Assembly: GCA_964365305.1 (NCBI GenBank)
Contig: CAYIPG010000001.1
Coordinates: forward strand, 2,214-66,213
Source: an uncultured Candidatus Saccharibacteria bacterium
GTDB lineage: Bacteria > Patescibacteriota > Minisyncoccia > JACQLN01
Length of the DNA stretch: 64,000 bases
Reading direction: 5' to 3'
The position numbers and the translations under genes are program-made. Below, piece by piece: positions 17,944 through 51,761 of the stretch. The notes under the pieces were generated by a model. It searched no databases. It was not told the origin of the DNA and saw only the letters and a list, made by a program, of their open reading frames with translations. The number at the start of each line of letters is the position of its first letter. Within the stretch, counting starts at the first letter, position 1.

Positions 17944-18903
17944 CTATTTTTTTAGAAAATTAAAAACCGATTCAGCAATAAAATCTTGAGTAACTGCCAT
18001 CGCCTCATAAGTAGCGCCGCCGATATGGGGCGCGATGATTAAATTCTGATGAGTTTTGGTATATTTCCAAAGCTGGTCTTTTTTTAGATGACTACCATCA
18101 CTGCGTTCATCCCACATTACATCTATGCCCGCGCCGGCGATCCGTTTGTTTTTTAAGGCGTTATATAAAACATTTTTTTCTATCAACTCTGCCCGAGCGG
18201 TGTTTATCAAATAAGCCGATGGTTTCATGGAACGCAAATGTTTTTCTTTTATTAAATTTTGGGTTTGATCGGTTAGTAAAACATGAAGTGAAACAATATC
18301 TGATCTCTTAAATAGTCCATCCATATTAATCTTGACCACGCCCCGCGATTTCATAAACTTCTCTGAAACATTGGGGTCGCAGGCCATAACTTTCATATTA
18401 AAGGCCTTGGCGTAGCGAGCCATAATTTTGCCTAAACGACCGAAACCCAAAAGACCGACGCTTTTCCCTAAAAGTTGGTGCCCGCTCCAACTGGAACTGT
18501 TCCAACCACCTAATTTAACATCATCAAAAGCCGCGGGAATATTTCTAAGCAAAGATATTATCAATCCGAAAGTTAATTCGGCCGTTGAGGGAATATTTTT
18601 TAAAAAACTTTTTTGTCCGCGTAAAGAAATTATTTTTACGCCCTTAGCTTTGGCGTATTTTGTATCAATATGGTTAAGACCTGTGGTGGAAGTGGCGATA
18701 ATTTTTAGATTAGACATCTTGGCCATCAGTTCGCCGGAAACAGTAAGGCCAAGGCGCACAACCAAAATATTAATTTGAGGAAAAATTTTATTTTTTTCTT
18801 TAGAGCTTAAATTCTCCAAAAAATAAATCGACCCTAGTTTTTTATAAATAGCTAGGGCCTTAGACGAATAATTACTTTCGGCAATCAATATTTTTAATTT
18901 CAT
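17944..18903 (-). CDS. D-isomer-specific 2-hydroxyacid dehydrogenase family (NAD-binding).
   Basis: GLLGFGRLGKIMARYAKAFNMKV (GxGxxG) and the C-terminal HIGGAT motif typical of the family. Confidence 0.75.
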   Translation of the reverse strand: MKLKILIAESNYSSKALAIYKKLGSIYFLENLSSKEKNKIFPQINILVVRLGLTVSGELMAKMSNLKIIATSTTGLNHIDTKYAKAKGVKIISLRGQKSFLKNIPSTAELTFGLIISLLRNIPAAFDDVKLGGWNSSSWSGHQLLGKSVGLLGFGRLGKIMARYAKAFNMKVMACDPNVSEKFMKSRGVVKINMDGLFKRSDIVSLHVLLTDQTQNLIKEKHLRSMKPSAYLINTARAELIEKNVLYNALKNKRIAGAGIDVMWDERSDGSHLKKDQLWKYTKTHQNLIIAPHIGGATYEAMAVTQDFIAESVFNFLKK

Positions 18904-19622
18904 GATAACAACCCTTTAGAAATCATAAACTCGGCAAATTCCCAGTCCATAATAGAGTCAATATCAAAAACCTCGCCTTCCAAAAACAACGGCAAAATGT
19001 TTTCGCCGCACATGGATTTTTTATTCATTATGGTTTCGTAACGCGCCACATCTACTTGGCCATAATGATTATAGGCCTTCGGCAATTTTTGGCGCGGCCA
19101 ATTGAATATTTCTTTTTCGCCTTCAACAACCAAAATCGGTTTCAAAAAACCGGTCTCGCTGGCGTGAAACATTTTATAGGGAGTAACCGGCGGCTTACCC
19201 ACTGTCCAAACCGCGTCGGCGTCGGAATTATCGGCAATCATTTCAACCGCCTTATCAATATCGGCGGTTTTTCGAAACGGATGAGTGGGACGCAAATGAA
19301 CAATAAAATCTGGATGCCAATTATCGTTTTTTTCCAGCCACTCCAAGGCGTGAACAAAAACAGGATGGTCGAGCGTATCATCTTGGGCCAGTTCTTTCGG
19401 TCTGATAAAAGGAACTTCACAACCACACTCTCTGGCAACCTTAGCTATTTCTTCGTCGTCGGTAGATAAAATCAAGCGGTCAATATATTTGGCCGCTTTC
19501 GCCTTTTCTATGGTATGGGCGATTAAAGGTTTGCCGCCCAATAATTTGATGTTCTTTTTGGGAATTGATTTAGACCCGCCCCGGGCCATAATCAGGCCTA
19601 AAACTTTGTGATCTTTGTACAT
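18900..19622 (-). CDS. Second acylneuraminate cytidylyltransferase-family protein.
   Basis: VLGLIMARGGSKSIPKKNIK...LILSTDD; a paralog of the 8223-8948 gene. Overlaps the downstream dehydrogenase by 4 nt. Confidence 0.75.
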   Translation of the reverse strand: MYKDHKVLGLIMARGGSKSIPKKNIKLLGGKPLIAHTIEKAKAAKYIDRLILSTDDEEIAKVARECGCEVPFIRPKELAQDDTLDHPVFVHALEWLEKNDNWHPDFIVHLRPTHPFRKTADIDKAVEMIADNSDADAVWTVGKPPVTPYKMFHASETGFLKPILVVEGEKEIFNWPRQKLPKAYNHYGQVDVARYETIMNKKSMCGENILPLFLEGEVFDIDSIMDWEFAEFMISKGLLS

Positions 19623-21343: not shown

Positions 21344-22750
21344 TTAATTAAACTTGAACTTGCGCGCGGCAAACACAGTCATTTTTAGCAACAACCAGCC
21401 GTGTTTCCACCTTTGGATGTTGGTATTGCCGTAAGCGCGGGCGCCATAGCGTATTGGCATCTCAACAATTTTTAAATTTAGCTTGGCTGCCCCAAACAGT
21501 AAATCAAAATCGCCGAAAGGATCAAAATCACCAAAATAAGATCTATGGGCGGCTATCCTTTCATAGTCACTTTTAAACAACACCTTAGTGCCACATAAAG
21601 TATCTTTTAGACGCTGACCCAAAATCCAACTAAACATCATACTGAAAAATTTATTGCCTAAGATATTCAAAATCCTCATTGATTCTTTTTCCATCGGATA
21701 AACCAACCGTGAACCGTTTATAAATTCGCCCTTGCCAAAAACCAGGGCGCTATAGAACTTTGGCAAATCCTCTGGGGCTACCGTAAGATCAGCATCTAAA
21801 ATAATCAATACTTCTCCTTGGGCCATTTCAAAACCCAGTCGCACCGCATCCCCCTTGCCGGCCCCTTTCTGAACTGCGCAGCGAATATGGTTTTTATTGC
21901 TGTACTTATCTATAACCCGCCGAATCTCCTCTGGGGTACCGTCTTTAGAATGACCTTCAATAAAAATAATTTCTTGAGAACTTCCAAATTTCGGCAAACG
22001 CAAAATAGCATTTTCGATATTACCTTTTTCGTTTCTAGCTGGAATAATAATTGACACCGAATAGTCCTTTTCTTTTTGGGGCTGGGGTCGAGCCACTACA
22101 TAGTGAATCAAACCCAATTGTGAAAATATCGGCAAATTAGCAATAATTTTATTAAAAAAACTGGAAACTAAAGGTATCCAGATAGGTAAAAGCATTTTTT
22201 CGCCTTTCTTGATAACTTCAAAACCGGATAGATAAAGTAAATTTTCTATATCTTTTGGAGATAACCAATTCTGTATTGGCTGTCTGGCTTTTAGACCCAT
22301 AAATTCCGCCAAACGAAGAACGGGCTCCCACAAATAATTATAATAAGTAATAATAACTCTTGTTCGTTCATTGCTTACTTTTAGAAGGGCCGAAAAAGTT
22401 TTATGTACATCCTCTAAATAACCCAAAACATCGGACATAATTACATAATCAAACTTTTCTGTAACAAGCGTATTTTCAGCATCACCAACCCGCCATTCTA
22501 AATGAGGATATTTGGCTTGAGCAATTTCAATCATTTTAGAGCTGATGTCAATCCCGACACTGCACTTGGGTCTGAGCTCATTAAGCAAATCACCAGTTCC
22601 TGAACCTATTTCAACAACAGAACTATTTGGTGGAATGATAAATTTGCATAAATTTTCAACTACTTGGTGATAATACCAATTTATTTTTCTCCATTTATCC
22701 CGATCTTTGGCATGTTTATTAAAATAATCAATTAACTCGTGTTTGTTCAT
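21344..22750 (-). CDS. Bifunctional SAM-methyltransferase / family-2 glycosyltransferase fusion.
   Basis: N-terminal VVEIGSGTGDLLNEL methyltransferase motif I. C-terminal SIIIPARNEKGNIE...ILDADL GT2 (DPM1/GtrB-like) motifs with the DxD. Confidence 0.7.
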   Translation of the reverse strand: MNKHELIDYFNKHAKDRDKWRKINWYYHQVVENLCKFIIPPNSSVVEIGSGTGDLLNELRPKCSVGIDISSKMIEIAQAKYPHLEWRVGDAENTLVTEKFDYVIMSDVLGYLEDVHKTFSALLKVSNERTRVIITYYNYLWEPVLRLAEFMGLKARQPIQNWLSPKDIENLLYLSGFEVIKKGEKMLLPIWIPLVSSFFNKIIANLPIFSQLGLIHYVVARPQPQKEKDYSVSIIIPARNEKGNIENAILRLPKFGSSQEIIFIEGHSKDGTPEEIRRVIDKYSNKNHIRCAVQKGAGKGDAVRLGFEMAQGEVLIILDADLTVAPEDLPKFYSALVFGKGEFINGSRLVYPMEKESMRILNILGNKFFSMMFSWILGQRLKDTLCGTKVLFKSDYERIAAHRSYFGDFDPFGDFDLLFGAAKLNLKIVEMPIRYGARAYGNTNIQRWKHGWLLLKMTVFAARKFKFN

Positions 22751-22832
22751 ATAACATAGAGATAGTATACATAACTACAGTATAACCAATAAAAAAGAAG
22801 AGCTGTTTCAATAAATAACTCTTTTCTATTGA

Positions 22833-24710
22833 TTATTTGACAACTATTTTATAAATTTCCACGGATGGATTTTTATAGATTAATCTAAGATTTTTTTCTG
22901 CGCTAAAATTGGGATTGCTAAATTGTTTTTCTAATGGACCAAGATATACTAAACCGGAATTAAAATTCTCCCAATTTAATACAAGATTATTATAATTATC
23001 AATAGATTCCTTAAGGTTTTTATTAAAAACAAATTCTGAACGCCCAGCAGCGGTAAGATACCACATGCTTTTATCAAAATTTATTCCCGTATCTTTATAA
23101 CACTTTTCTTGACTGCAATCATATGGGATGATTGCCTTAAATCTTAAAGCCAGCATTTCTTTTGGTACATCAAATAACTTATTAACTATCAAAAATCTTC
23201 TTTCTAATTCTGAACTGGAAAGCGTAGACAAAAAACCGGTAGCCAAATATGGTCGAGATGAAGTATATGATCCAAGGTATAAAGAAGTCACTAAAGAATC
23301 AGAAATAACTGTGGATTCTGCAGATAAATTAGATTCAACCCACTTCCAGGAACTTATGATATCGCCCGGAAAAACATACGATATTATTTGGTCTTTGGGC
23401 GGGTACAGAAACCCAGAAAGATTCACAATGTGCTTTGTTACCAAAGAAACCGATAAAATAACAACAAACAAAATTATACCGCTCTTAAACATGGACTTGG
23501 TTGGAAAAAATGTCCTGAATAAATCGTAAAGCAAACTTGAAATTATAATAAAATAAACCAAACTAATCGGTTTGTTAAAATGAAAAAGGGCAAAACCAAA
23601 ACCGGTAATCATCGGTGTATACCAAACCAAAAAAGAAGTAACAATAAGGCCGATAAAGAAAACTCCTTTCTTTATTAAATCTGCCTGTTTTTTAAAATAA
23701 AATAAATAAACGGCAATTAATGTAATGAAATAAAATAAATAATTTACTAAAATGGTCCAGCCCATCGAAAAATTAGTTATATAGTCATTAACCAGGAACC
23801 TGCCAATTTCTTTGCCTAATCTAAGGGAGTAATCAGAACTGTAACCGGAAAAATTAAATCTTAGATAGTTAACGATATATGGTATTAAAACCAAAAAAAT
23901 AGTCGAGCATAATAAAAAAACTGGTTTAAATTTATAATCATTCGCAGTACGATTATATAAACTATAAATAAATACCAAACCGATAAAAACCATCATGAAC
24001 AACCAATAGTGTAAATAAACATAAGCCAACAGACCAATAGATAAACCGGCAAAAATAGCATTGATTTTGGTTGGTTTAATCCAAAATAAATAAGTTGTTA
24101 AAATAGCCAAGATCAAGAAACCTAGTGTAAGCATTGGATCATCTATCCTAGAAAAATACATCTTACTTATAGGAGTTCTGACCAAAGGAATAAACTTTTT
24201 TATAATCATTCCTAAATAATCATCATCAATATAACTATAACCAACCAACATTTGTGGAATTTGCGTTAAAGTGCCGACTAAACTAAAAAATAATGAGGGA
24301 ATCTTAGATCTAAGAAAAATCGTACCTAAATAATAAAAAAGAATAAAAAATATAATTGCGAATAAAAACTGCGCCGACAAATAAGCGATGTTTATATCAC
24401 CCCTAAATAATTTAATGAAAAAAGAAAACAATAATGGAGTAATAGGATTTAGTGGCGTAGGATTGTTGTCATTGGCATAAATACCACCAGGAGGAAAATG
24501 GCCATCATAAACTTCTCTGGCCCTAGGCATATATTGGAAAAACTCATCCCTATATACATTCTGCTGCATTAATAAAAAATCAGCGTTAGATTCATAAATA
24601 TTAATCCAAAGCAATATTTGCGGCATAACAAATAAAAAACCGACAAAAACGGCCAAAATAGCAACCATTAACCATATTTTATTATGTATATAAGAAATGA
24701 TGGGATTCAT
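22833..24710 (-). CDS. Large polytopic membrane protein of unknown family (paralog A).
   Basis: 625 aa, more than 12 TM helices. Shares the conserved motif MPRAREVYDGHFPP near the first extracytoplasmic loop and a conserved C-terminus (...EIYKI) with the 34053-36014 protein. Confidence 0.4.
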   Translation of the reverse strand: MNPIISYIHNKIWLMVAILAVFVGFLFVMPQILLWINIYESNADFLLMQQNVYRDEFFQYMPRAREVYDGHFPPGGIYANDNNPTPLNPITPLLFSFFIKLFRGDINIAYLSAQFLFAIIFFILFYYLGTIFLRSKIPSLFFSLVGTLTQIPQMLVGYSYIDDDYLGMIIKKFIPLVRTPISKMYFSRIDDPMLTLGFLILAILTTYLFWIKPTKINAIFAGLSIGLLAYVYLHYWLFMMVFIGLVFIYSLYNRTANDYKFKPVFLLCSTIFLVLIPYIVNYLRFNFSGYSSDYSLRLGKEIGRFLVNDYITNFSMGWTILVNYLFYFITLIAVYLFYFKKQADLIKKGVFFIGLIVTSFLVWYTPMITGFGFALFHFNKPISLVYFIIISSLLYDLFRTFFPTKSMFKSGIILFVVILSVSLVTKHIVNLSGFLYPPKDQIISYVFPGDIISSWKWVESNLSAESTVISDSLVTSLYLGSYTSSRPYLATGFLSTLSSSELERRFLIVNKLFDVPKEMLALRFKAIIPYDCSQEKCYKDTGINFDKSMWYLTAAGRSEFVFNKNLKESIDNYNNLVLNWENFNSGLVYLGPLEKQFSNPNFSAEKNLRLIYKNPSVEIYKIVVK

Positions 24711-24771
24711 TAAGATGTTAATTGAACTTAAATATTTTATAACTTATTAATTAAATATGCCAAATAAATGC

Positions 24772-26172
24772 TTACATATTAGACAATATAAAATTAGCCG
24801 TCCTTTCCCCCGCCCTGCCATCTAAAATAGAGCACTGTTCTTTAACTAACCTGGTTCTGGCATTTTCATCTATAGATGGATTCTCTAGATATTTATTAAT
24901 CCAACGAACCATCTCCTCCTTGTCGCTAACCAATTTTATTGCGCCGGTTTTTAACGCGTTTAAATAATGTGTCATTTTATAGAGTTCTGTGGGAGATCTA
25001 TATACCGATAAAGGTTCGGCTAATTCAAAATTAATATTTATTACCGGTTTGTTAAAAATAGAAGCATCAATGCACAAGCTAGAAGCGTAAGAAACTAAAA
25101 CATCGCAATGATATAAGCTATTTATAAGCATCTCTATATCTTTTGGGCTTAAATCCCAATCAATGCCGGCGCCTATCGGCATGTGATTTGAGAATCTTAT
25201 TCCAGGAATATCAAAAACTATGTTCTTTCTTTTTCTAACTTCGCCAATTTCGACAAAATCATTTGGCTGGAATCTCACAAACAACTGCGCGTTCTTAATA
25301 ACATTTTGTTCAATAAGCGCTTGTAAATAATCAATCATAAGCCATCTTGAGCTAATGAAACGTTTAGCCAAGGGAGCATAAAAAACAACTTTTTTGTTTG
25401 GATCTCCGCCTGTTTGTTTAAAAAAATCAGATCGACTTATTTTTTTCTGGTTAATATATTGATCATAATGGGGCACTCCGCCAATAAAAATATCCTTGCT
25501 TGGTAAATCTGCGTAATTAATAGCGTCTGTTTTTACCAAATCATTGTAGACAATTAATTTATCTGGCAATACCCTCAAAGCGCACCGACCGGTAATTTTA
25601 TCCCATGAATTTGCTAAAGCAAAAGTTTTAACGCCCCTTTTTCTAGCTTCCCTCAATAAAGACGCTTCTCTATCATCAAATGGATGGGCCGAGACGACGG
25701 CAATTGGCCTGTATTTATCAAAAAAAACATTGAATGCAGAATCATCAATCAGCAATATATCTAAAAAACGATACAATCTCCTAACAAGACGCCGGGCAAG
25801 TATACGATTCAGCAACCACCCGCCCCATAATCTAAAAAGATTTTTATGTGTTTCAAATGCCAACTTGCGTCTCCAATCTATGGTAGCTGTATTAATCATC
25901 TTAAATTTAAGGGAACCAAAAAACCGTTGCCATAAACTATGCTCGGTTTTGGAAACAATTTCATAAAATACTCTTGGATTGTTAAATTGCCGCTGATAAA
26001 AGTTTATTTTATTTTTTGTATTTACAAAAAAAACTATCTTAATAACCGGATTGGCAATCAGGGTTTTGAAAATATCCGTTCTTAAGATATTTTTAGCTTC
26101 CACTCCTTGAAAAATGGTTATAAATATGGTCTTAAAATCATTCATAAAAAACTGCGGAAAAATACCGCACAC
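24772..26172 (-). CDS. TagF-like CDP-alditol phosphotransferase family GT-B protein (paralog 1 of 4).
   Basis: VVFYAPLAKRF (cf. YAPTWR) and CDVLVSYASSLCIDASIFNKPVININFE...Y (cf. TagF DILITDYSS..FD...KP.IFY) motifs. 466 aa. Confidence 0.5.
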   Translation of the reverse strand: MCGIFPQFFMNDFKTIFITIFQGVEAKNILRTDIFKTLIANPVIKIVFFVNTKNKINFYQRQFNNPRVFYEIVSKTEHSLWQRFFGSLKFKMINTATIDWRRKLAFETHKNLFRLWGGWLLNRILARRLVRRLYRFLDILLIDDSAFNVFFDKYRPIAVVSAHPFDDREASLLREARKRGVKTFALANSWDKITGRCALRVLPDKLIVYNDLVKTDAINYADLPSKDIFIGGVPHYDQYINQKKISRSDFFKQTGGDPNKKVVFYAPLAKRFISSRWLMIDYLQALIEQNVIKNAQLFVRFQPNDFVEIGEVRKRKNIVFDIPGIRFSNHMPIGAGIDWDLSPKDIEMLINSLYHCDVLVSYASSLCIDASIFNKPVININFELAEPLSVYRSPTELYKMTHYLNALKTGAIKLVSDKEEMVRWINKYLENPSIDENARTRLVKEQCSILDGRAGERTANFILSNM

Positions 26173-26258
26173 TGAATAAATATGTATATTTTTATAACTT
26201 ACTGAATAATGGAGCGGTTTTATGGGTTAATGTTTATTCTAAAAAATACTTGGATAAA

Positions 26259-27458
26259 TCACCAACTTATTTGAATTGAAGTTGTTTTTTTATCATTAAG
26301 TTTAGTCAAAAAATCAGGATTTAATTTATAATAATCATTCTTTGTGTTCCATTCTAAAAAATTGGAGATATTAAAAAGAATTTTGCCCATAGTAACTTCT
26401 GTAGAATGCATCCCATCAAACATATAAAGATCGTTCAAACCTAAAGATGCTAAATCGGAATAATCAAAAAACTGAAACCCAAACTCATCAAATAATAATG
26501 GAATCCTGGCTTGAAAATTGTTAAATAAATCCCGCTGATAAACAGAACTTTTCAACTCTTTTATTACTTCTGATGAAAACGGCGTTGCTAAACCTACAAC
26601 TTTTATACCTTTTTTTTTGCTAATCTCTAGAAATTCAGCCAAAAGATTGAATCTATCTTCGCTAAAAAAACTACCCTGTTCAAATGGATCCGTACCATTA
26701 TTAATCCGATCCAAAACTTTTTCGCCGTCAATAAACTTAATTTCATTCGCCATCTCTTGAATATTGTGCCCATATTGATAACTGCCATCCGAACGAAAAC
26801 CGTCCCCAAACAACAACGCATTCAAACCGATAGCCGACTTACTTTCAATAGGTTCTTGCTCGTCAACTACTTTTTTAAAGATGTATATCGGATTTTTTGC
26901 TATTTGTAAAAACAAATACCTAGCAACATAAAGATGCGCTTTCCACTGATACGCTTCTTCTTTTTTACTTAAATCTTCCGATAATCCATAAATCAAGTCA
27001 TTTTTCTCGCCAAGCCAATAAAAATCAACACCTAAAATTATTGTCTTGGGTTTGGCTTCGTCTGGCAGTAATTTTATAAAATCAATCAGGTCAGCAATAT
27101 TATGAATTAAGCCGCCGGCATTATAGAATTTTTCACTGTCGTCAAACATTTCTTGGCGAATTTGCATAACGCGCGAAGAACCAAGAACTAAAACATCCGG
27201 CTTTTTTGATAAAATAGTTAAGTATTTATATGTCCTCAAAGATTGATCGGCTATTTTGCGACCAAAAAGAATATCCTGCCTACTCTTGGTCTGCAAACTA
27301 ATAACCCTTTTTATCGGCAAGAGTTCTCCCGAATAAAAAATAACCGCTTCAAGAATAAAAAAAATAATCACAAGCGGCAACCAAAACAAAAAGATATTTT
27401 TCAAAAAAAGTTTGAGAGTTTTCGGATATTTAGCCATAAACAAACCTCCGCACAACAA
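26259..27458 (-). CDS. DltD-like membrane-anchored SGNH-type acyl-transfer protein.
   Basis: 399 aa. An N-terminal TM helix is followed by VLVLGSSRVMQ, closely matching the DltD catalytic-serine motif LLVLGSSEL. Size and topology match DltD (about 390 aa). Confidence 0.55.
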   Translation of the reverse strand: MLCGGLFMAKYPKTLKLFLKNIFLFWLPLVIIFFILEAVIFYSGELLPIKRVISLQTKSRQDILFGRKIADQSLRTYKYLTILSKKPDVLVLGSSRVMQIRQEMFDDSEKFYNAGGLIHNIADLIDFIKLLPDEAKPKTIILGVDFYWLGEKNDLIYGLSEDLSKKEEAYQWKAHLYVARYLFLQIAKNPIYIFKKVVDEQEPIESKSAIGLNALLFGDGFRSDGSYQYGHNIQEMANEIKFIDGEKVLDRINNGTDPFEQGSFFSEDRFNLLAEFLEISKKKGIKVVGLATPFSSEVIKELKSSVYQRDLFNNFQARIPLLFDEFGFQFFDYSDLASLGLNDLYMFDGMHSTEVTMGKILFNISNFLEWNTKNDYYKLNPDFLTKLNDKKTTSIQISW

Positions 27459-27478
27459 ACTGTCGCGAAGTTATTAAA

Positions 27479-27886
27479 TTAAAATTGAAAATAAATAAAG
27501 GGATTATAATTATACACGCCGAACAATAAGATCACAGCAACAACAAGATAATAAATCAACCACCTAAGCCAAGATGGATAATCATCTATCTGTAAAGGAT
27601 GCTCTTTTCTTCTCTGTATCCATTCCACCACAATGAAACCCGCAATAATAAATAATCTTTTTGGATAAATTGTCCCGATATTAAATAGATTAAATTCCAA
27701 AGCTATTTTTTTTACCACATAAAACGCTTCATTTATTGTGTTGGCTCTGAAAAATATCCATCCAAACAAAACAAGAATAAATGTAAATAATATAGCTGGG
27801 ATATCTTTAAGCGAAGCAACGGTATTTGATTCAAATTTATTAATTAATTCTTCTGACTTTGACGCGGAATGTTTGTTTCCATCCAT
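27479..27886 (-). CDS. Small integral membrane protein (3 TM), possibly DltX-like.
   Basis: 135 aa. The C-terminus PFIYFQF resembles the conserved C-terminal aromatic FIYxQF-type motif I recall for DltX. This is weak evidence. Confidence 0.3.
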   Translation of the reverse strand: MDGNKHSASKSEELINKFESNTVASLKDIPAILFTFILVLFGWIFFRANTINEAFYVVKKIALEFNLFNIGTIYPKRLFIIAGFIVVEWIQRRKEHPLQIDDYPSWLRWLIYYLVVAVILLFGVYNYNPFIYFQF

Positions 27887-27925
27887 AATATTAAGTTAGT
27901 TATTTTAGTATTAAATTTATTATAT

Positions 27926-28690
27926 TCACATCATATGCAACCCACCGTCAATTGGAATATTCAAACCGGTAAGATATTCCGCATTGTCGCTTAATAAAAA
28001 TTTGGCTAAACAAGCCACATCCTTATTATTTACCAGCCGTTTTAATGGGGTTTGTGATTCTATCAATTTAATAAAGGTTTCTGGATATATCGTGGAAATA
28101 CCCTCTCCACTAACACCAGGAGATATCATATTAACCCTTATTTTTCTAGAAGCAAGCTCATTTGCTAAACAACGAACTAGACCAAATTGCCCATATTTTC
28201 CAACCGTGTAACTAAACAAACGGGCCGGAGGAACATTAAATAAACACGCTGAACCAATTACTAAAACACTTTTCAATGGATGGTCTTCCTCAATAAGCTT
28301 TGTAATTGTAAGCCATAAACCTTTTATCTGGACAGCAAACTGTATCTCAAAATTATTCCAATCGTCTTTATTGATTGTTCTAAATTCCGTTGAAACGCCG
28401 ACTGTGTAAACCAAGTTATTAAATTTTATTTGACTTGAACCAATAATTTTTTTAACTTGCGACTCATTGGTGATGTCTAATTGCGCGGTAATTAATGTGC
28501 TTTTTTTGGATTTTGATAATTTAATTAATTCTAAAAGACAACTTTCTTTTTCTTGACGAAAAAAAGTAAGAAATAGATTATGCCCGGCAAGCAGTAACTC
28601 ATGAGCTATTGTTTTGCCAAAAGTGCTGGTGCCGCCAATTATTAGTGTGTTGGGCTTGATCATAGTTTTAAATATATTTAACCTTGGCAA
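27926..28690 (-). CDS. Short-chain dehydrogenase/reductase (FabG-like ketoreductase).
   Basis: TLIIGGTSTFGKTIA glycine-rich NAD(P)-binding motif; 254 aa classical SDR length. Confidence 0.7.
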   Translation of the reverse strand: MPRLNIFKTMIKPNTLIIGGTSTFGKTIAHELLLAGHNLFLTFFRQEKESCLLELIKLSKSKKSTLITAQLDITNESQVKKIIGSSQIKFNNLVYTVGVSTEFRTINKDDWNNFEIQFAVQIKGLWLTITKLIEEDHPLKSVLVIGSACLFNVPPARLFSYTVGKYGQFGLVRCLANELASRKIRVNMISPGVSGEGISTIYPETFIKLIESQTPLKRLVNNKDVACLAKFLLSDNAEYLTGLNIPIDGGLHMM

Positions 28691-29096
28691 TACCGTTAAC
28701 CACTTCTTCGTTATTTTGATTTATGATGACAGTTTCAATTTCTAATAAATAAACCGAATTAATCTTATTTTTTATCTTACCCCTAACAGTGACAGTTTCA
28801 CCAATAAAAACCGGCTTTTTAAAATTAATATTTTGCGATAAATACAAATTATGATTTTTAAAAAACTTGCCTACTAAGGTTGAAAAAAATGCCGCTAAAA
28901 GCATCCCATGCACGACAGGTTCTAAAAAATCCTTACTTTTAGCAAATTTTTTATCGCGATGAAGTAAATTTTTATCTCCCGATAGAGAAATAAAATCCAT
29001 TACCTTGTTTTTACTAATAGTCGTTTTGAAAAACGCGACATCCCCGACTTTTATTTTTTCCCAAATATCTTTCTGGGGTATTTTTTTAACATACAT
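28668..29096 (-). CDS. MaoC-like hotdog-fold dehydratase/hydratase.
   Basis: 142 aa. SGDKNLLHRDKKFAKSKDFLEPVVHGML resembles the MaoC/(R)-hydratase hotdog active-site region (D/H...H-G). Confidence 0.6.
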   Translation of the reverse strand: MYVKKIPQKDIWEKIKVGDVAFFKTTISKNKVMDFISLSGDKNLLHRDKKFAKSKDFLEPVVHGMLLAAFFSTLVGKFFKNHNLYLSQNINFKKPVFIGETVTVRGKIKNKINSVYLLEIETVIINQNNEEVVNGIAKVKYI

Positions 29097-29325
29097 ATTT
29101 TACATTATATTTATCTAAAACTTTTTTAATATCTCCCACATTTTTAACCGCCATAAGATCATCCATATCAAATCTGACACCACTAGCTTTTTCCAGCTCA
29201 ACCATCATCATTATAGCATTAAAAGAATCCCATGTTGGCGTGTTGGTTGGAGAAATTTCATCATTTATTTTGTTGCTGGGGATTTCCAATATTTTTGCCA
29301 GTATATCGTATAATTTTTCTTTCAT
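29086..29325 (-). CDS. Acyl/peptidyl carrier protein (DltC/ACP-like).
   Basis: 79 aa. WDSFNAIMMMVELE contains the phosphopantetheine-attachment Ser in a DS(L/F) context followed by the helix-II acidic patch. Confidence 0.7.
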   Translation of the reverse strand: MKEKLYDILAKILEIPSNKINDEISPTNTPTWDSFNAIMMMVELEKASGVRFDMDDLMAVKNVGDIKKVLDKYNVKYVC

Positions 29326-29327
29326 AT

Positions 29328-31115
29328 TTAATGTTTATTGATTTCTATAAAACCATATTGATTAAACACATAATCATCCAAATCACGCTCCCAAATGTCT
29401 TCAGTTTCGGATGATTTTATTTTATGGAAATTAAAAATTTTATAAAAATCTTTAACCTGATTGTTTTTTAGCGTTGGTTTGTAACAGGCGCGTACTTTTT
29501 TCGGGTTTAATTTCTTAAGCTCGCTTAAGATAAACCCAAAAAACTGCTCTTCTACTTTCTTCCCCAAAACCCTACAACTAAGCAACATGGAATCTATCTC
29601 CCACCTATCCGGCATATCTTTGACCATACAAAATCCGGTAATACCGTATTCTCCAAATTTATCAACAACATCTAGCGCCCAAAGTTTATGGCCTGATTCA
29701 ATAAATTTTTTGATATCATCTTCTTGATAACGATGTGTGGTTAAATTAAATTGGTTTGTTTTTTGTGTTAATTGAGCGCTGCGCGGTATCAAAAAATCAT
29801 CAACTGCTTTTATCGAAATACATAAATTTAAATTATTTAAAAAAGTATCTAAATCTATAATTGCATCTTTATATTCTATTCTTTGTTTTTCTTGTAAATA
29901 CATCGCGCTCCGTTTCTTATCCTCTCCAGTAAACTCAAATGTATTGAATCCTTTATAATCCAGCAGAGTTTGGATATATTTCGTTGAATCGGTGGGCAAG
30001 TCCAAAACTGTGACATCCGGCAATGTTTGTTTTATTAACTCGCGGTTAGTCAGATCGTCATCAATAAACACCAAACTGTCCAAACCGACATTTAATTCTC
30101 TGGCTATTTCCTGCATATTCTTTGCTTTATTGTCCCAATTTATCTTGCTTACTATAATATCGTCTTTTCGCAAAACCATATACGGATGATGTAAAAATAC
30201 TTCTTCTACATCTTCTTGATTATTCTTGCTGTTAATCGCCAGCAATATGCCTCTTTTGCTTAAACTCAATAACAATTTCTGGAAATAATAAAACTGCTGC
30301 CCTTCGCCTGCTGGCGCTAATTTTATTCCGGCTAATCCATCTTCACCAATAACACCTCCCCATAATGTATTATCTAGATCAAGTACAATACATTTCTTCT
30401 TTTTGAAAGCCAGAGGCACAAGGTAAGATGTCAATTCTTCTGCTAACATTGGAATTGCTTCGGGAGATAATTTCATATCAGCCGTAAAAGAATATTTATC
30501 ATACCAAAAATCTTTTTTGCCTATGTATCCTAACCATTCATTAAAATTAAAAATGAAAACTTGTTTATCATTTTGATAAGTATTCAGTAAATTATTATTA
30601 TAGTCATCAATTATTCTATACCATCCATTATTGAGTTTGCTGTCAAAAATTCCAGTTACCGGCGGCCAAATTTTACTGGCATTGCTAATAATAATTTTTG
30701 CTTTAGTTTTACTTTTTATGTAACTTACAAGCTGTAATAATCCATCCTCCGTTTCATATTTAAATTTATTGAGTTCTTCATTAGTAATTTCATGGTGGCG
30801 ATATAAAATATCTTGATTTAAACCATGCAAATCGAGTAACAAAAAAATAATGTCTGGTTTAAATTCGTAAAGTTCACTACCCAGTATCTCTTGCTTCCAC
30901 TGTCCATATTTACCTTCGTAAACATCTAAAAAAATATCTTGAACAAATGATTTGGTTTTTAGGCATTCTGCCAATCCCTTAATAGTAAAGCTTGACAAAA
31001 GAGCTACATTTTTTGCTTCTTTATCTTTAGATATTTTATCAATTTCTTTGGCCCACCCAATGCATGATGCTATGGCATTTGACTCTAATTTTATTTTTTC
31101 TTTTGATATGTTCAT
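29328..31115 (-). CDS. FkbH-like HAD-superfamily (subfamily IIIC) protein, putative glyceryl-ACP-forming loading enzyme.
   Basis: 595 aa. The central CIVLDLDNTLWGG HAD motif I sits about 235 aa from the N-terminus with a downstream INSKNNQEDVEEVF (HAD IIIC). The C-terminal GNAT-like region (WEIDSMLLSCRVLGKKVEE) matches FkbH/OzmB-type domain order. Confidence 0.6.
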   Translation of the reverse strand: MNISKEKIKLESNAIASCIGWAKEIDKISKDKEAKNVALLSSFTIKGLAECLKTKSFVQDIFLDVYEGKYGQWKQEILGSELYEFKPDIIFLLLDLHGLNQDILYRHHEITNEELNKFKYETEDGLLQLVSYIKSKTKAKIIISNASKIWPPVTGIFDSKLNNGWYRIIDDYNNNLLNTYQNDKQVFIFNFNEWLGYIGKKDFWYDKYSFTADMKLSPEAIPMLAEELTSYLVPLAFKKKKCIVLDLDNTLWGGVIGEDGLAGIKLAPAGEGQQFYYFQKLLLSLSKRGILLAINSKNNQEDVEEVFLHHPYMVLRKDDIIVSKINWDNKAKNMQEIARELNVGLDSLVFIDDDLTNRELIKQTLPDVTVLDLPTDSTKYIQTLLDYKGFNTFEFTGEDKKRSAMYLQEKQRIEYKDAIIDLDTFLNNLNLCISIKAVDDFLIPRSAQLTQKTNQFNLTTHRYQEDDIKKFIESGHKLWALDVVDKFGEYGITGFCMVKDMPDRWEIDSMLLSCRVLGKKVEEQFFGFILSELKKLNPKKVRACYKPTLKNNQVKDFYKIFNFHKIKSSETEDIWERDLDDYVFNQYGFIEINKH

Positions 31116-31122
31116 ACTTAAA

Positions 31123-31461
31123 TTATCTCTTAAACGCTATAGCTATTCCAAAACTACTATCATGACTTATGCTTATTTGTATATCCTGTTTTGGCAAACC
31201 TTTTATTTTCACGCATGGCTGTCCACATACTTTATGCTTAATTTCAATTTGACCATGGTTATTTATTTCTTTTTTACCACATGCTTTAATCACAGCTTCT
31301 TTTGCGGCAAAAATTCCAGACAAATGTTCAGAAAATCTTACATTTGAAAAGCAATATTCCCATTCTTTCTTTGTATAAAATTTATCCCAAAATGGATAAT
31401 CTTTTTTCTTTATATTTTTAAACCTACTAATAGAGACAATATCTATTCCAATTCCAATCAT
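31123..31461 (-). CDS. acpS: Holo-ACP synthase (4'-phosphopantetheinyl transferase, AcpS type).
   Basis: 112 aa. MIGIGIDIVSISRF and AAKEAVIKA motifs of AcpS. Confidence 0.75.
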   Translation of the reverse strand: MIGIGIDIVSISRFKNIKKKDYPFWDKFYTKKEWEYCFSNVRFSEHLSGIFAAKEAVIKACGKKEINNHGQIEIKHKVCGQPCVKIKGLPKQDIQISISHDSSFGIAIAFKR

Positions 31462-31569
31462 AATTATTCCGCCTTAAAATAAACTACTTAACAATACCAT
31501 ACCATTATCAATCGGCTCTGTCAAAAAGCCAAGGTTTGGTTGCCATTCGTAGAAAAATATCTTGCTAAA

Positions 31570-32649
31570 CTAAAAAATTTTAATCTTTTTCCTAATATTT
31601 TTAATTATTGAACCCATGACTAAATAAAATCCAAATATGACTCCCATAAATATATAATTCCATCCAGCTCCATGCCATAAACCTATAAGCATAAAAGTAA
31701 TAAAGGTACTTGCATATATCCAGCTTTTTGTTTTGTTTTTCCGACTAAATACCAGGGGATAATAAAGATAATCTCTTAACCAAGTTGATAGTGAAATATG
31801 CCAGCGGCGCCAAAATTCTTCTATATTTCTTGAAAAGTAAGGATAGGAAAAATTTCTCATTAACTTAAAACCGAACAGTTTGGCCGTGCCAATCGCAATA
31901 TCAGAATATCCAGAAAAATCAGCATAAAGCTGGAAAGCAAAAAAGAAAGTGGCAATTAACAACTGATTGCCAGAAACATTTGATAAATTACTATATGTAT
32001 TATTTACAGCAATCGCTAACATGTCCGCTATAAATATTTTCTTAAAAAAACCCCATAGCATTTGCCGACAACCGTCAATAGCTTCTTCCATTTTAAATAC
32101 TCTTTCTCGCGCGAACTGCGTTAAAAAACTTTGCGCTCTATCTATTGGTCCAGCGATAAGTTGGGGAAAAAATGAAACAAATGCTAAAAACTCTGTAAAA
32201 TTACCGGCCGCAGGAATCTTGCGCCGATAAACATCAATGGCGTAACTTAATTCTTTAAAAGTATAAAAACTGATACCGACCGGTAAAATAATGTTAAGCG
32301 TAGTAACCGAAGTTAAAGCCATACCAGCAGACAAAAATAATCCCTGCAACGAACTAATAAAAAAGTTAAAGTATTTAAAAAAACCAAGGATGCCAAGGCT
32401 TGAAATTATAGTTATTGTTAAATAAATTTTGCGCCTTTGTGTATCGTCTGTGTTATGAATTTTCTTTCCCAAAAGAAAACTTATCGTGCTTGATATAAAA
32501 ATTAAAAATAGAAAACGCCAATCCCACCAACCATAAAAAATATAACTAACTATAAGAATAAATAAATTCTGCCTTGCTCTGTTCAATTTCCAGTAAATCA
32601 GGAAAACAAACGCTAAAAAAATTATAAATTCCAAAGAGTTAAAAAGCAT
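31570..32649 (-). CDS. MBOAT-family membrane-bound O-acyltransferase (DltB/AlgI-like).
   Basis: FWRRWHISLSTWLRDYLYYPL contains the invariant MBOAT His motif; multi-TM, 359 aa. Confidence 0.8.
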   Translation of the reverse strand: MLFNSLEFIIFLAFVFLIYWKLNRARQNLFILIVSYIFYGWWDWRFLFLIFISSTISFLLGKKIHNTDDTQRRKIYLTITIISSLGILGFFKYFNFFISSLQGLFLSAGMALTSVTTLNIILPVGISFYTFKELSYAIDVYRRKIPAAGNFTEFLAFVSFFPQLIAGPIDRAQSFLTQFARERVFKMEEAIDGCRQMLWGFFKKIFIADMLAIAVNNTYSNLSNVSGNQLLIATFFFAFQLYADFSGYSDIAIGTAKLFGFKLMRNFSYPYFSRNIEEFWRRWHISLSTWLRDYLYYPLVFSRKNKTKSWIYASTFITFMLIGLWHGAGWNYIFMGVIFGFYLVMGSIIKNIRKKIKIF

Positions 32650-32694
32650 TGTTTAAAATATAAAAATAATCTTGTGTTTCAAACAAATATGGCA

Positions 32695-34056
32695 TTATTG
32701 TAAAACCAGTTCGGATAACAAATCAGCTATCCTGGAAGCCGATTTACCATCCAGTTTCCCAATTTGTTCAACAACTAAACTATTACGCCCAGACCTATCC
32801 AGGCCAGAATCATTAAGATATATATTGATAGTGCGTATCATTTCGTCTGGGTCTTTAGCAACAAAACAAGCCCCAGTTTTAAGCATTTTCTTGGTATGCT
32901 CATAATATTCCGCAAAACGCGATACGCTTCCAAAAACAGGCTTTTGCTCTTGTCCGTCAAAAGATACCAGAACAATAGGTCTATCAAGCGCTGCCGCGTC
33001 AAGAACCAAACTGGAAGCATAAATAACAACCAAATCGCTATGATATAACGAATCAGCTAACGGTAAATCTTCATCCATGGTAACCTCCCAATCTGAATAA
33101 ATATCTTTTCTAAATGGAATGCCTGGTTTATATATAAAAAAATTATTATCCGGAGTAAAACCATCGAAAGAAACATAATCATTCGGCGGTAATCTTACTA
33201 AAAACTTAACACTGCCTGGTATTTTTTTATCCAAAAGAGACCTTTTCAATATATCCAGTAGCTGCCCATCTGTGTTGGCAAAACGCCGGCCAAGCGGACC
33301 GACAAAAATTAATCTGTCTGAAGGATTAAAACCAAGCTTTTTCAAAAAAATGTCTCTAGAACAATATTCTCTCCTGACATAATGATCCAGCTGAGGCAAT
33401 CCTGACACAAAAATGTTCCCCTCTTTCATGTCTTCATGCTCTAATGCCTCTTTTTTAATAACATTGTTTTGAACTATAAGTTTATCCGGCTTAATTCTAA
33501 AAAGGCCTTTGTTGGTAATGTTATCCCAAGATCTAACCATACCTACAGTTAGCACACCGCTTTTTTTGCTTGCGGCCAAAAGATAAACATCCATGTCATG
33601 AAAAATATCAGTGGAAAATAATAAAAATGGAGAATATTTGTTTAAATATTTCTCCATCAAACCGATATCCATAAAAATAAGATCCAACCAACGAACAAAC
33701 TTCTTAACAAAACCAAAATTGCCAAAAAACTTACCCAATATCCTTGAAAAATAAAAATGGATTGCGTTTTGGTCGGAAAGATACTTTTTCTTTTGATGAA
33801 AAAAACGAGTTGTGGTGTTTACTAATGACCCGCCCAGGTATCTAAATAAAATATCTTTTCTGCTTAATTTTAAACTCGGTATTCCTTCTATGACTATATT
33901 TCCAAACTCAAATTTTTTCTTAAAATATTCTTCCTTATAGTCCGGCACCAATACAACCACCCTAATTCCGCTATTGACCAATAAACTAGCGATCCCGGTT
34001 TCCAAAATATTTCTAGATATAAAAGGATTAAAACTTGTAATAAATATTGTTTTCAC
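32695..34056 (-). CDS. TagF-like CDP-alditol phosphotransferase family GT-B protein (paralog 2).
   Basis: LIFVGPLGRRF and DLVVIYASSLVLDAAALDRPIVLVSFD motifs. Overall colinear with the 24772, 41207 and 49603 proteins. Confidence 0.5.
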   Translation of the reverse strand: MKTIFITSFNPFISRNILETGIASLLVNSGIRVVVLVPDYKEEYFKKKFEFGNIVIEGIPSLKLSRKDILFRYLGGSLVNTTTRFFHQKKKYLSDQNAIHFYFSRILGKFFGNFGFVKKFVRWLDLIFMDIGLMEKYLNKYSPFLLFSTDIFHDMDVYLLAASKKSGVLTVGMVRSWDNITNKGLFRIKPDKLIVQNNVIKKEALEHEDMKEGNIFVSGLPQLDHYVRREYCSRDIFLKKLGFNPSDRLIFVGPLGRRFANTDGQLLDILKRSLLDKKIPGSVKFLVRLPPNDYVSFDGFTPDNNFFIYKPGIPFRKDIYSDWEVTMDEDLPLADSLYHSDLVVIYASSLVLDAAALDRPIVLVSFDGQEQKPVFGSVSRFAEYYEHTKKMLKTGACFVAKDPDEMIRTINIYLNDSGLDRSGRNSLVVEQIGKLDGKSASRIADLLSELVLQ

Positions 34057-36014
34057 GGTTTCGTTATTTTATAAATTTCCACTAAAGAGTTACGATAAAC
34101 CAAACTCAAATTTTTATCCGCCGCTAGATTAATCCGACTGCCCAATTGCCTTTCCCATGGGCCAAAATAGACATAATCAGACGGCATATTGCTTATAACG
34201 CCTATCGAGGTGCTATTATAACGCTCTGTAAGTTCGTCTATTTTGCCCATCGGCAAGCCGGTTTTGCCGTCAAAATACTCCGCGAATGTTTTTTTAAATC
34301 CATCTCCATAAAGTTGAAACTGTGTTTTATTCAAATTAATACTCATATCCGGGAAACAGCCGGCATCAAAACAATTTTGAGGCGCTTTACCTTCCAGTTG
34401 CTGTCTAAAAAGATCAGATGGGACATTGAATAGTTTCCGAGCTATAAGCAGCCGTTCTTCCAATTCAAAATTAGAAGCCAAAGAAAGATGCGCCCGAGGT
34501 AAGAAGGGGCGGGCCGAAGTATATGCCATTAAATAGATGGAGGTTACATAGGAAGGTGAAATAATTTTGGGTTCTGGCTCAAGATTATGATTAATCCAAT
34601 CCCAAGAATCAACAACTTCATTGGAGAATTTATAGTAAAGCAAGGTTTCTTTATTGGGACTTTTCCATAAAGAGACGGTGTTTATGGCGTATTTGGAAAA
34701 AACTAGCAGACCTAGCACAGCTACTCCAATTTTTATTACCTTCTTTATTCTAAACGAATTTCTAAAACTATAAATCCAATCAAACAACAGCGTTATCCAT
34801 ATAATATAAAGAGTAACCGCCACAGGATAACGCCATTTGCTTGGCACCGTTGACTGCCCGATAAACAGCTGTAAATTCCACACCAATATAGCCGCTATTA
34901 TAAATCCAAAAAACAATAAACCTTTTTTATATTTATTTGTGAATTTGCCATCAGCAACCACGGTGTTTCTAAAGTATGTCGCCCCAATAGCCAAAATGGT
35001 TATAAAATAAAACAAATAATCCAATAGGTTCTTTTTATGAAACCCCCAGTCCCGGCCGGTCAGCACCGCCGAGCGATAAGATATGTCTTCAGCGTCCGGC
35101 AACGCCTTAAACATGAAATAATTGATAAAATAGGGCAACAATAGAATACCAAAAACAACAAAAAGAACTCCGAAATTTTTAAGCAGTTGCCGGTCTTTCG
35201 GATAAAACAGCGCCGCGGCTATGGCCATAACAGCCATGACCGCTGTCCAATATATCCAAGTGGTAAAATAAATATAGGCCAATAGCGCCGCCGGCAAAGC
35301 CGCCGCTACGGCAAGAGAATATTTCGGCTTCATCCAAAACCGGATAAAAGTAATTATCGCCGTAAGATAAAATGGATAGACCAGTAAAGGATGGTCAATT
35401 CTGGCTATACGAAGTTTATCAATCTGGGTTCTGATGATTGGAATAAACTGCTTGAAGGTATAATCAAACAGTGTTTTGAGATCATTGCGGAAATCAAATG
35501 AAAAGACATTGGGAAGAATCGGGGTTAAAGCGCCGGTTGCGGCAAAAAATAATGACCAGCTTTTGGATTTGAACAACAACCGTCCAACTATATAAAGAAA
35601 AACAAATATAACCGCCGAGAATAAGAATTGAATAAATAAATATGCTGATGTAACATCGCCCTTAAAAAGAGTTATGGCCAACCCGAATACCAAAGAAGGC
35701 AGGGCGTTGCGGGGAGACGGCCTTTGTTGGTCCAAAGAAAGTTCGGTTGGAGGAAAATGCCCGTCATATACTTCCCGAGCCCGTGGCACATACATATAAA
35801 GCTCGTCGCGGTAGGTTTTTAGTTGAGCCAATACAAACCTATCTTCATGAATATTAAAATAATCCCTAATGGCTAAAGGCGGACCAATAAATAAAAAACC
35901 CACCGCGGCCGCGGCGCAGCTAATCAAAAGGAATTCCTTTCTTGAAAATCTTGAAAACAAATTGGCTATTTTATTTGTTGCGTAACCGAAAATCACCCTT
36001 AAACTGTTTTTCAT
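34053..36014 (-). CDS. Large polytopic membrane protein of unknown family (paralog B).
   Basis: 653 aa. Shares YVPRAREVYDGHFPP and the C-terminus ...LVEIYKI with the 22833-24710 protein. The 5' end overlaps the RmlB-like gene by 44 nt, so the true start may be an internal Met. Confidence 0.4.
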   Translation of the reverse strand: MKNSLRVIFGYATNKIANLFSRFSRKEFLLISCAAAAVGFLFIGPPLAIRDYFNIHEDRFVLAQLKTYRDELYMYVPRAREVYDGHFPPTELSLDQQRPSPRNALPSLVFGLAITLFKGDVTSAYLFIQFLFSAVIFVFLYIVGRLLFKSKSWSLFFAATGALTPILPNVFSFDFRNDLKTLFDYTFKQFIPIIRTQIDKLRIARIDHPLLVYPFYLTAIITFIRFWMKPKYSLAVAAALPAALLAYIYFTTWIYWTAVMAVMAIAAALFYPKDRQLLKNFGVLFVVFGILLLPYFINYFMFKALPDAEDISYRSAVLTGRDWGFHKKNLLDYLFYFITILAIGATYFRNTVVADGKFTNKYKKGLLFFGFIIAAILVWNLQLFIGQSTVPSKWRYPVAVTLYIIWITLLFDWIYSFRNSFRIKKVIKIGVAVLGLLVFSKYAINTVSLWKSPNKETLLYYKFSNEVVDSWDWINHNLEPEPKIISPSYVTSIYLMAYTSARPFLPRAHLSLASNFELEERLLIARKLFNVPSDLFRQQLEGKAPQNCFDAGCFPDMSINLNKTQFQLYGDGFKKTFAEYFDGKTGLPMGKIDELTERYNSTSIGVISNMPSDYVYFGPWERQLGSRINLAADKNLSLVYRNSLVEIYKITKP

Positions 36015-51691: not shown

Positions 51692-51761
51692 AGATAAAAC
51701 TATATATAATTGTAACCCAAAAATAAAGCCGGCGGTTTTTTGCCGATGGCTGTGTGTGATC

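Follow-up and report, generated by a model that had tools for sequence, protein, structure and literature searches.

A 64,000-nucleotide stretch of the genome of an uncultured Candidatus Saccharibacteria bacterium (contig CAYIPG010000001.1, positions 2,214 to 66,213; hereafter the window) carries a gene for a long-form FkbH protein, which is nearly abutted on the minus strand by genes for a stand-alone acyl carrier protein (ACP) and an AcpS-type phosphopantetheinyl transferase (PPTase). All three genes are found where the initial annotation of the window had placed them, and their scores lie above the curated family cut-offs (Pfam ACPS, 25 bits; TIGR00556, 45.35; TIGR01686, 146.65; PP-binding, 20.8). 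The trio is part of a longer operon of eight genes (Table 1), and that annotation, correct on the trio, fell short on the extent of the operon: it overlooked the genes for an MBOAT-family protein, a MaoC-type dehydratase, a short-chain dehydrogenase/reductase (SDR), a 135-residue membrane protein and an SGNH-fold protein. The MBOAT, MaoC, SDR and SGNH genes are the ones that carry the mechanism. Judged from its sequence, the operon appears to be a system of the candidate phyla radiation (CPR) in which a three-carbon (C3) acyl group is formed on a carrier of its own and passed by a split MBOAT to a surface glycan.

Table 1. Genes of the acyl operon, in minus-strand order, followed by the two paralog pairs that flank it (positions in the window)
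Feature	Length (aa)	Position	Strand	Supporting evidence
MBOAT core	359	31570..32649	minus	Pfam MBOAT 77.7 bits; catalytic His326 (WHGAGW)
AcpS-type PPTase	112	31123..31461	minus	Pfam ACPS 57.5 bits; TIGR00556 66.2 bits
Long-form FkbH	595	29328..31115	minus	TIGR01686 291.5 bits, residues 240-563
Stand-alone ACP	79	29086..29325	minus	Pfam PP-binding 28.4 bits; Ser34 in DSF motif
MaoC-type hot-dog dehydratase	142	28668..29096	minus	Pfam MaoC_dehydratas 64.7 bits
FabG-like SDR reductase	~245	27926..28663	minus	Pfam adh_short_C2 107 bits, KR 26.8 bits
Membrane protein, detached MBOAT C-terminal module	135	27479..27886	minus	C-terminal FIYFQF (F130-I-Y132-F-Q-F135)
SGNH-fold protein, DltD-like, membrane-anchored, one N-terminal helix	392	26259..27437	minus	Invariant motifs
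TagB/TagF-like GT-B transferase	466	24772..26172	minus	Pfam Glyphos_transf 41 bits; BFO_1060 E = 7e-14, below cut-off
Paralog of the 466-aa transferase	453	32695..34056	minus	31% identity, BLASTP E = 2e-77; BFO_1060 E = 6e-8
Polytopic membrane protein	625	22833..24710	minus	No Pfam or NCBIfam match; 35% identical to the 653-aa protein
Polytopic membrane protein, paralog of the 625-aa protein	653	34053..36014	minus		No Pfam or NCBIfam match

An eight-gene operon with a split MBOAT

The 595-residue FkbH protein, an identical copy of which is recorded in a Patescibacteria metagenome-assembled genome and in Hainich groundwater contigs, consists of an FkbH_N domain (Pfam, residues 37-229), a HAD-IIIC phosphatase domain and a C-terminal acyl-transfer domain. 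The TIGR01686 match covers profile positions 3-319 of 323 and spans the HAD and C-terminal domains. The protein also matches PDB 3slr (BF1531; E = 1e-54), in which an FkbH_N domain is present too. No variation is seen at the HAD motif residues D246, D248, T250, S296, K330 and D352/D353 across 35 homologs or in two further homologs from polyketide synthase (PKS) or nonribosomal peptide synthetase (NRPS) contexts (L092, L093). A conserved cysteine in the C-terminal domain, which the initial annotation had named as the residue to look for, is present: Cys514, in an S-C-R-V motif (S513-C514-R515), is invariant across all FkbH sequences aligned, including the two PKS/NRPS-context homologs, which are about 26% identical to the window protein. 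From this conservation, Cys514 is probably the catalytic thioester cysteine. A review of OzmB describes the transfer of a glyceryl group from 1,3-bisphosphoglycerate through a glyceryl-S-enzyme to an ACP, and says only 'glyceryl-S-OzmB' for the thioester (PMC9057759). The window FkbH is likewise predicted to load glyceryl from 1,3-bisphosphoglycerate onto its ACP. The AcpS protein has an ACPS domain above the cut-off and a length within the range of about 110-130 residues that marks the family, and AcpS genes lie directly upstream of FkbH in CPR and archaeal loci.

The MBOAT gene is present in two pieces. The core ends about 20 residues past the helix that carries the catalytic histidine and is without the C-terminal module, which is encoded separately as the 135-residue membrane protein. 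Both pieces are colinear with unsplit MBOATs: residues 4-364 of the protein from a Parcubacteria locus (L090) align with core residues 1-350 (E = 7e-116) and its residues 376-483 with residues 32-135 of the 135-residue protein (E = 1e-23), and in a thaumarchaeal locus (L020) residues 6-367 correspond to the core and 375-496 to residues 16-135 of the small protein. The five donor genes, from AcpS to the SDR, thus sit between the halves of one MBOAT gene. The core resembles DltB (TIGR04091, E = 3.6e-48; PDB 6bug, E = 7e-29), with His326 aligned to the WHG of DltB, and its TIGR04091 score of 164.7 bits is under the cut-off of 375. The terminal FIYFQF of the small protein is invariant in 19 of 19 aligned homologs, and several of these are longer at the N-terminus, where they include the MBOAT His region. 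The sequence is the FXYXXF acyl-shuttle motif, whose tyrosine carries the acyl group in DltX and at the PatA C-terminus (PMC12148441), and the 135-residue protein would be a functional analogue of DltX.

Both MBOAT halves remain intact open reading frames (ORFs) down to 49-57% identity, and orthologs of the small C-terminal piece are found down to 49%. Their dN/dS ratios of 0.08-0.32 signify purifying selection; values for the core are 0.14 against locus L007 and 0.08 against L004, and that for the 135-residue gene is 0.19 at a dS of 0.38 (against L094). The split layout is common to L007, the FkbH of which is 71% identical to that of the window. In L004 (67%), a truncated MBOAT core is followed by AcpS-FkbH-ACP-MaoC and the contig then ends before any C-terminal piece. 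Two more distant small matches considered as stand-alone shuttles in other genomes, P0202 and P0213, were rejected, because both come from error-prone contigs on which a frameshift has fragmented the MBOAT gene. A genuine split is accordingly confined to the clade of the window, and a Micrarchaeota locus (L030) may be a separate case. The MBOAT adjoining AcpS-FkbH-ACP in L030 (707-1879) has 390 residues, one helix more than the window core, which is about the extent of DltB; it lacks FXYXXF, and the contig stops before a possible downstream shuttle gene. The shuttle module may have been lost or split off independently in this archaeon. A metagenome scan with the 135-residue protein returned one short contig.

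The remaining three proteins also retain the residues expected of their families. In the MaoC protein the hydratase-2 motif residues D41 and H46 can be read off the translation, and the SDR keeps the glycine motif GGTSTFG together with Y161-x3-K. The SGNH protein has a Ser/Asp/His triad and an N-terminal membrane anchor; the GSSR (S87/S88) and D341-x-x-H344 motifs are invariant in its family, its AlphaFold2 model has a pLDDT of 94.5 and its best structural match is DltD. In Berkiella (L089), L090 and L091, the gene for the SGNH homolog immediately follows that for an MBOAT. The window genes from AcpS through SGNH overlap or are separated by gaps of 2-41 nt, and a wider gap of 108 nt separates AcpS from the MBOAT core upstream of it. 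In a promoter scan that as a whole did no better than chance, the best sigma-70-like match of the region (TTGACA, 17 nt, TATGGT and a TG upstream; 31496-31524, minus strand) is situated in this MBOAT-AcpS gap.

Genomic context of FkbH and alternative outputs of the donor cassette

The families encoded in the window were surveyed by a Pfam scan of all ORFs of at least 100 residues, opposite-strand ORFs nested in longer ones being left out. No ketosynthase (KS), acyltransferase (AT), PKS or fatty acid synthase (FAS) family was matched in these ORFs, in agreement with the initial annotation, and the scan found no AMP-binding enzyme (DltA-type ligase) in the window. The window amounts to a single large glycan locus with abundant nonulosonic-acid genes. 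It holds four NeuB-family genes, four CTP_transf_3 genes, two UDP-GlcNAc 2-epimerases, Bac_transf, Wzy_C and a flippase, and the window is also rich in glycosyltransferases and methyltransferases.

For comparison, at least 80 genome loci with an FkbH homolog were collected from many bacterial and archaeal phyla, and neighbours were counted within 4 kb of FkbH; the counts given here refer to the 80 loci listed. An ACP is found near FkbH in 69, MaoC in 27, an SDR in 18 (fused to MaoC in seven, all bacterial) and AcpS in 16. Only two contain an ORF of more than 1500 residues, so that long-form FkbH lies mostly outside PKS clusters. FkbH proteins do occur in such clusters, and the earlier statement that glyceryl-ACP-forming FkbH is known from the vicinity of PKS genes was overstated in respect of the long form. 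A recruitment of FkbH chemistry to glycan modification, which had also been suggested, is supported by the frequent ACP, the rarity of very long ORFs and the location of the closest FkbH relatives, all of which lie among nonulosonic-acid or glycosyltransferase genes. The linkage of AcpS is strongly biased, occurring in 14 of 19 CPR or archaeal loci against 2 of 61 loci from other bacteria (Fisher p = 8e-10). This bias fits hosts without a housekeeping PPTase, and the proposal that the AcpS is a private enzyme gains support from it. To our knowledge, FAS is generally absent from CPR bacteria and archaea.

Relatives of the donor cassette show two alternative outputs. One is the MBOAT and SGNH pair, seen in the window, L004 and L007, in the unsplit version of L090 (MBOAT-SGNH-AcpS-FkbH-ACP-MaoC-SDR) and in the archaeal versions L020 (SGNH-like-MBOAT-FkbH-ACP-MaoC) and L030 (SGNH-like-MBOAT-AcpS-FkbH-ACP), where the SGNH-like gene is upstream. 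The other, in relatives without an MBOAT, is a GNAT-like protein of about 340-375 residues encoded after the cassette, which is accompanied by a polysaccharide deacetylase in L005, L008, L097 and L098; the L008 and L097 clusters adjoin NeuB and CTP_transf_3 genes, and about ten further loci carry the GNAT-like gene by sequence. The window has neither a GNAT-like nor a deacetylase homolog (no hidden Markov model match at E <= 10). This exchange of outputs is the main evidence that MBOAT and SGNH are the consumers of the acyl-ACP in the window. In L087 (1771-5154) one ORF apparently fuses FkbH, ACP and the GNAT-like protein, and in L043 (11748-13130) ACP and the GNAT-like protein seem to be joined; these fusions support a direct functional link between the carrier and the GNAT-like transferase. 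The FkbH of L090 (9511-11035) is found in two overlapping frames with the N-terminal domain partly absent, which points either to a decaying loader gene or to a fault in the assembly.

A proposed Dlt-like pathway and its alternatives

The trio can be read as supplying the donor side of a Dlt-like pathway, encoded by eight genes, that would acylate a surface glycan, an interpretation to which we assign a probability of about 0.55. AcpS would convert apo-ACP to holo-ACP, a step needed since the host is probably without a housekeeping PPTase. FkbH would then dephosphorylate 1,3-bisphosphoglycerate at the 3-phosphate with its HAD domain, retain the glyceryl group in thioester linkage, probably to Cys514, and load it onto the ACP. 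MaoC would remove the 3-hydroxyl of glyceryl-ACP to give enol-pyruvoyl- and hence pyruvoyl-ACP, and the FabG-like SDR would probably reduce this to lactyl-ACP. The MBOAT core (His326) would move the acyl group from the ACP across the membrane to Tyr132 of the 135-residue protein, and the serine of the DltD-like SGNH protein would finally take it and esterify the glycan of the surrounding locus, which probably contains nonulosonic acids. The families of the eight proteins, their catalytic residues, the MBOAT split and the conserved gene order can be read directly from sequence. That acyl-ACP serves as the MBOAT donor is suggested by the nesting of the cassette between the MBOAT halves together with its alternative outputs; both the lactyl cargo and the acceptor glycan are predictions.

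The lactyl group, formed by way of a dehydratase (DH) and a ketoreductase (KR), is a proposal by analogy with FkbH-type loading modules of PKS. That of BryA has the order DH-KR-FkbH-ACP. In the loading module of the trans-AT PKS OocJ the order is DH-MT-FkbH-ACP, where MT is a methyltransferase (PMC4552970), and FkbH loading has been tabulated as yielding D-lactate-ACP (PMC7901079). The Sungbacteria locus L005 (12464-13402) has a methyltransferase after MaoC in place of the SDR, an arrangement that mirrors OocJ, and by the same analogy its cassette predicts a methoxyacryloyl-type group rather than lactyl. A broader generalisation is offered more tentatively, at slightly less than even odds: the operon could represent a second, Dlt-independent family of carrier-dependent MBOAT-SGNH pathways, distributed over CPR bacteria and archaea of the thaumarchaeal and DPANN groups, that would place glycolysis-derived C3 hydroxy-acyl (lactyl or glyceryl) esters on surface glycans. 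In the clade of the window, insertion of the cassette would have split the MBOAT into a DltB-like core and a DltX-like shuttle, and the Dlt architecture would so have arisen anew along a path that can be traced.

Several observations weigh against the proposed pathway. L089 and L091 have full-length MBOAT-SGNH pairs that belong to these families but are accompanied by no ACP, so this MBOAT clade is not intrinsically carrier-dependent and acetyl-CoA could be used here. Among the 80 distant FkbH loci listed, an MBOAT is nearby in only 2. A promoter scan gave 47 sites against 45.9 expected, which is chance level, and a terminator scan was also at chance level. We know of no citable precedent for O-lactyl esters on bacterial glycans, and the cargo could be glyceryl or pyruvoyl. 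The ACP-free pairs would also suit an arrangement of two unrelated neighbours. The cassette would then supply a C3 acyl group that is attached in the cytoplasm to the nitrogen of an amino-sugar or nonulosonic-acid precursor, giving products such as N-glyceroyl- or dimethylglyceroyl-pseudaminic acid, and the MBOAT-SGNH pair would O-acetylate a glycan from acetyl-CoA. Nonulosonic acids of this kind exist (PMC5378307, PMC7099621), the window has its own complement of NeuB-family and CTP_transf_3 genes, and in CPR relatives the cassette is more often partnered by a cytoplasmic GNAT-like protein beside such genes. It is precisely this partner that the window lacks, along with the deacetylase, and the operon has no other acyltransferase. 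The cassette is, moreover, nested inside the MBOAT gene pair, and adjacency to MBOAT recurs in four gene orders in CPR bacteria and two archaeal phyla. The arrangement of unrelated neighbours is given something like one chance in four.

Less probable again is that the architecture is as proposed and the cargo is glyceryl or pyruvoyl, MaoC and the SDR acting on another substrate or at another stage. Among the 80 loci listed, FkbH-ACP occurs without MaoC in 53 and without an SDR in 62; L020 and L005 have MaoC and no SDR, the methyltransferase occupying the SDR place in the latter, and glyceroyl decorations of glycans are documented (PMC7099621, PMC5378307). Set against this, the MaoC and SDR genes of the window are placed between those for the ACP and the C-terminal module of the MBOAT, a position that is conserved in L007 and L090, both proteins retain their catalytic motifs, and the seven MaoC-SDR fusions adjoin FkbH-ACP. 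We regard it as highly improbable that ACP and AcpS serve a PKS or FAS beyond the window, or that the split MBOAT is a dead gene which an insertion has interrupted. Outside the window lie the rest of the genome and about 5.6 kb of the same contig (an estimate from the coordinates of L001), and FabG-like and MaoC proteins are also found in FAS, but the 64 kb hold no KS or AT and synteny is kept in seven other related contigs, with no PKS shown. A broken gene is also hard to reconcile with the intact halves, the invariant His and FIYFQF and the low dN/dS ratios described above.

FkbH genes in glycan loci are already known as annotation (cj1302 of Campylobacter jejuni). No literature description was found of an MBOAT-SGNH pair, other than that of Dlt, that is supplied by a carrier protein, as is predicted here, or of a split MBOAT with a DltX-like tail. 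In the literature on FkbH with MBOAT, polysaccharide or capsule no description of such a system was found, and in the two co-mentions of FkbH and MBOAT, the suomilide and aeruginosin clusters, the enzymes act at unrelated steps. Since the operon holds both a carrier and a shuttle, carrier-fed MBOAT acylation may extend beyond D-alanylation. The occurrence of split and unsplit MBOATs in close relatives suggests that the Tyr-shuttle module is workable as a separate polypeptide, and the split points to one possible origin of the DltB/DltX arrangement. An AcpS-FkbH-ACP-dehydratase-reductase cassette could account for glycerate- or lactate-type acyl groups on nonulosonic acids, the genetic origin of which has been described as a major challenge (PMC5378307), and it provides a testable prediction of surface chemistry for uncultured CPR and archaeal cells, which are surface-dependent in episymbiotic attachment.

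The surrounding glycan locus and comparison with known systems

The acyl operon is bracketed by two mirrored pairs of paralogs (22833-26172 and 32695-36014; 31-35% identical), with the 653-residue membrane protein and 453-residue transferase on one side and the 466-residue transferase and 625-residue membrane protein on the other. The BFO_1060 family, to which both transferases show similarity, is that of a Tannerella transferase for derivatives of pseudaminic or legionaminic acid (PMC5420450), and the 466-residue protein is a candidate nonulosonic-acid or polyol-phosphate transferase. A teichoic-acid reading, in which the flanking Glyphos_transf proteins would be poly(glycerol-phosphate) synthases, was dropped, as all four such proteins match BFO_1060 and NeuB and CTP_transf_3 genes are abundant; the same features make the acceptor lean towards a nonulosonic-acid glycan and away from teichoic acid. 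Genes for NeuB-type synthases, CMP-sugar cytidylyltransferases or BFO_1060-like transferases are found at 10204-12281, 46790-47842, 8223-8948, 18900-19622 and 50981-51805. In total the 64 kb hold three full NeuB-type synthases and one shorter one, at least four CMP-sugar cytidylyltransferases and four BFO_1060-like transferases, a number suggestive of several different nonulosonic acids in a CPR genome of small size. The G+C content over the operon and its flanking paralogs (22000-34000) is 31-34%, against 36-46% in most other parts of the window. Either horizontal acquisition or just the base composition of the variable part of a glycan locus could account for the difference. In related loci (L004, 3315-8549; L007, 4705-8238; L008, 7504-9573), genes for B12-binding radical SAM proteins repeatedly lie just upstream of the MBOAT or of the AcpS-FkbH module, and the window has one at 44401-45939. 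A PAPS-reductase-domain protein within the glycan locus and a Trp-repressor-family protein at its edge (53050-53730 and 510-935) were also seen.

A connection between FkbH-type chemistry and nonulosonic acids has been noted elsewhere. The fkbH-domain gene cj1302 lies in the flagellar glycosylation locus of C. jejuni, the glycans of which include pseudaminic acid modified with dimethylglyceric acid (PMC7099621), and T. forsythia produces N-glyceroyl pseudaminic acid (Pse5Am7Gra; PMC5378307). These systems share with the window an FkbH-family gene or a glycerate-derived acyl group tied to nonulosonic-acid glycans. They differ in that the decorations are N-acyl groups of the sugar, added in the cytoplasm at the CMP-sugar stage, and the papers cited describe no MBOAT/SGNH export route for them.

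FkbH, OzmB and ZmaN, of the methoxymalonyl-/hydroxymalonyl-ACP and tetronate pathways, have the same HAD-IIIC and C-terminal domains and invariant residues, and a dedicated stand-alone ACP adjoins them as well. The window FkbH is distant from its PKS/NRPS-context homologs and has the additional FkbH_N domain, which is absent from the 366-residue OzmB. There are no FkbK/FkbI-type dehydrogenases in the window, which also lacks KS and AT, and the predicted output is a glycan acyltransferase and not an assembly line. FkbH loading modules of trans-AT PKS are similar in combining a dehydratase and a reductase or methyltransferase with FkbH and ACP, and the D-lactyl-ACP tabulated for FkbH loading domains (PMC7901079) is also the product predicted for the window operon. 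In the window these activities are free-standing (a MaoC hot-dog protein and a FabG-like SDR), with no KS downstream.

On the acyltransferase side, the window MBOAT is of the same sequence type as those of PatA/PatB and AlgI/AlgJ/AlgX (GWIFFRA, terminal FIYFQF), and the SGNH gene is adjacent to the MBOAT gene in those systems too; the unsplit relatives in L089, L090 and L091 look exactly alike. PatA/PatB and AlgI/AlgJ/AlgX use acetyl-CoA, and according to a mechanistic study of 2025 (PMC12148441) neither a carrier protein nor a DltX-like shuttle is present in MBOAT-SGNH pathways other than Dlt, whereas the window has both in addition to a split MBOAT.

The closest overall likeness is to the DltX/A/B/C/D system for D-alanylation of teichoic acid in Firmicutes, in which DltB takes the acyl group from a carrier protein and the route runs from the carrier to the MBOAT His, the shuttle Tyr, the SGNH Ser and the polymer (PMC12148441). 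Common to both are a carrier protein with a thioester-bound acyl group, a DltB-sized MBOAT in which the His is conserved, a small membrane protein that is encoded separately and has FXYXXF at its end, and an SGNH partner on one N-terminal helix. In place of DltA, loading in the window is predicted to be carried out by FkbH from a glycolytic acyl-phosphate, and instead of D-alanine the cargo would be a C3 hydroxy-acyl group, which a dehydratase and a reductase are predicted to tailor while it is bound to the carrier. The shuttle protein, with 135 residues and about three helices, is a detached MBOAT C-terminus with no detected homology to DltX beyond FXYXXF, the host belongs to the CPR and the acceptor is likely to be a glycan of its own locus. 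With no DltA, and an MBOAT that does not reach the DltB equivalog cut-off, the operon is Dlt-like in its architecture only and is no Dlt operon proper.

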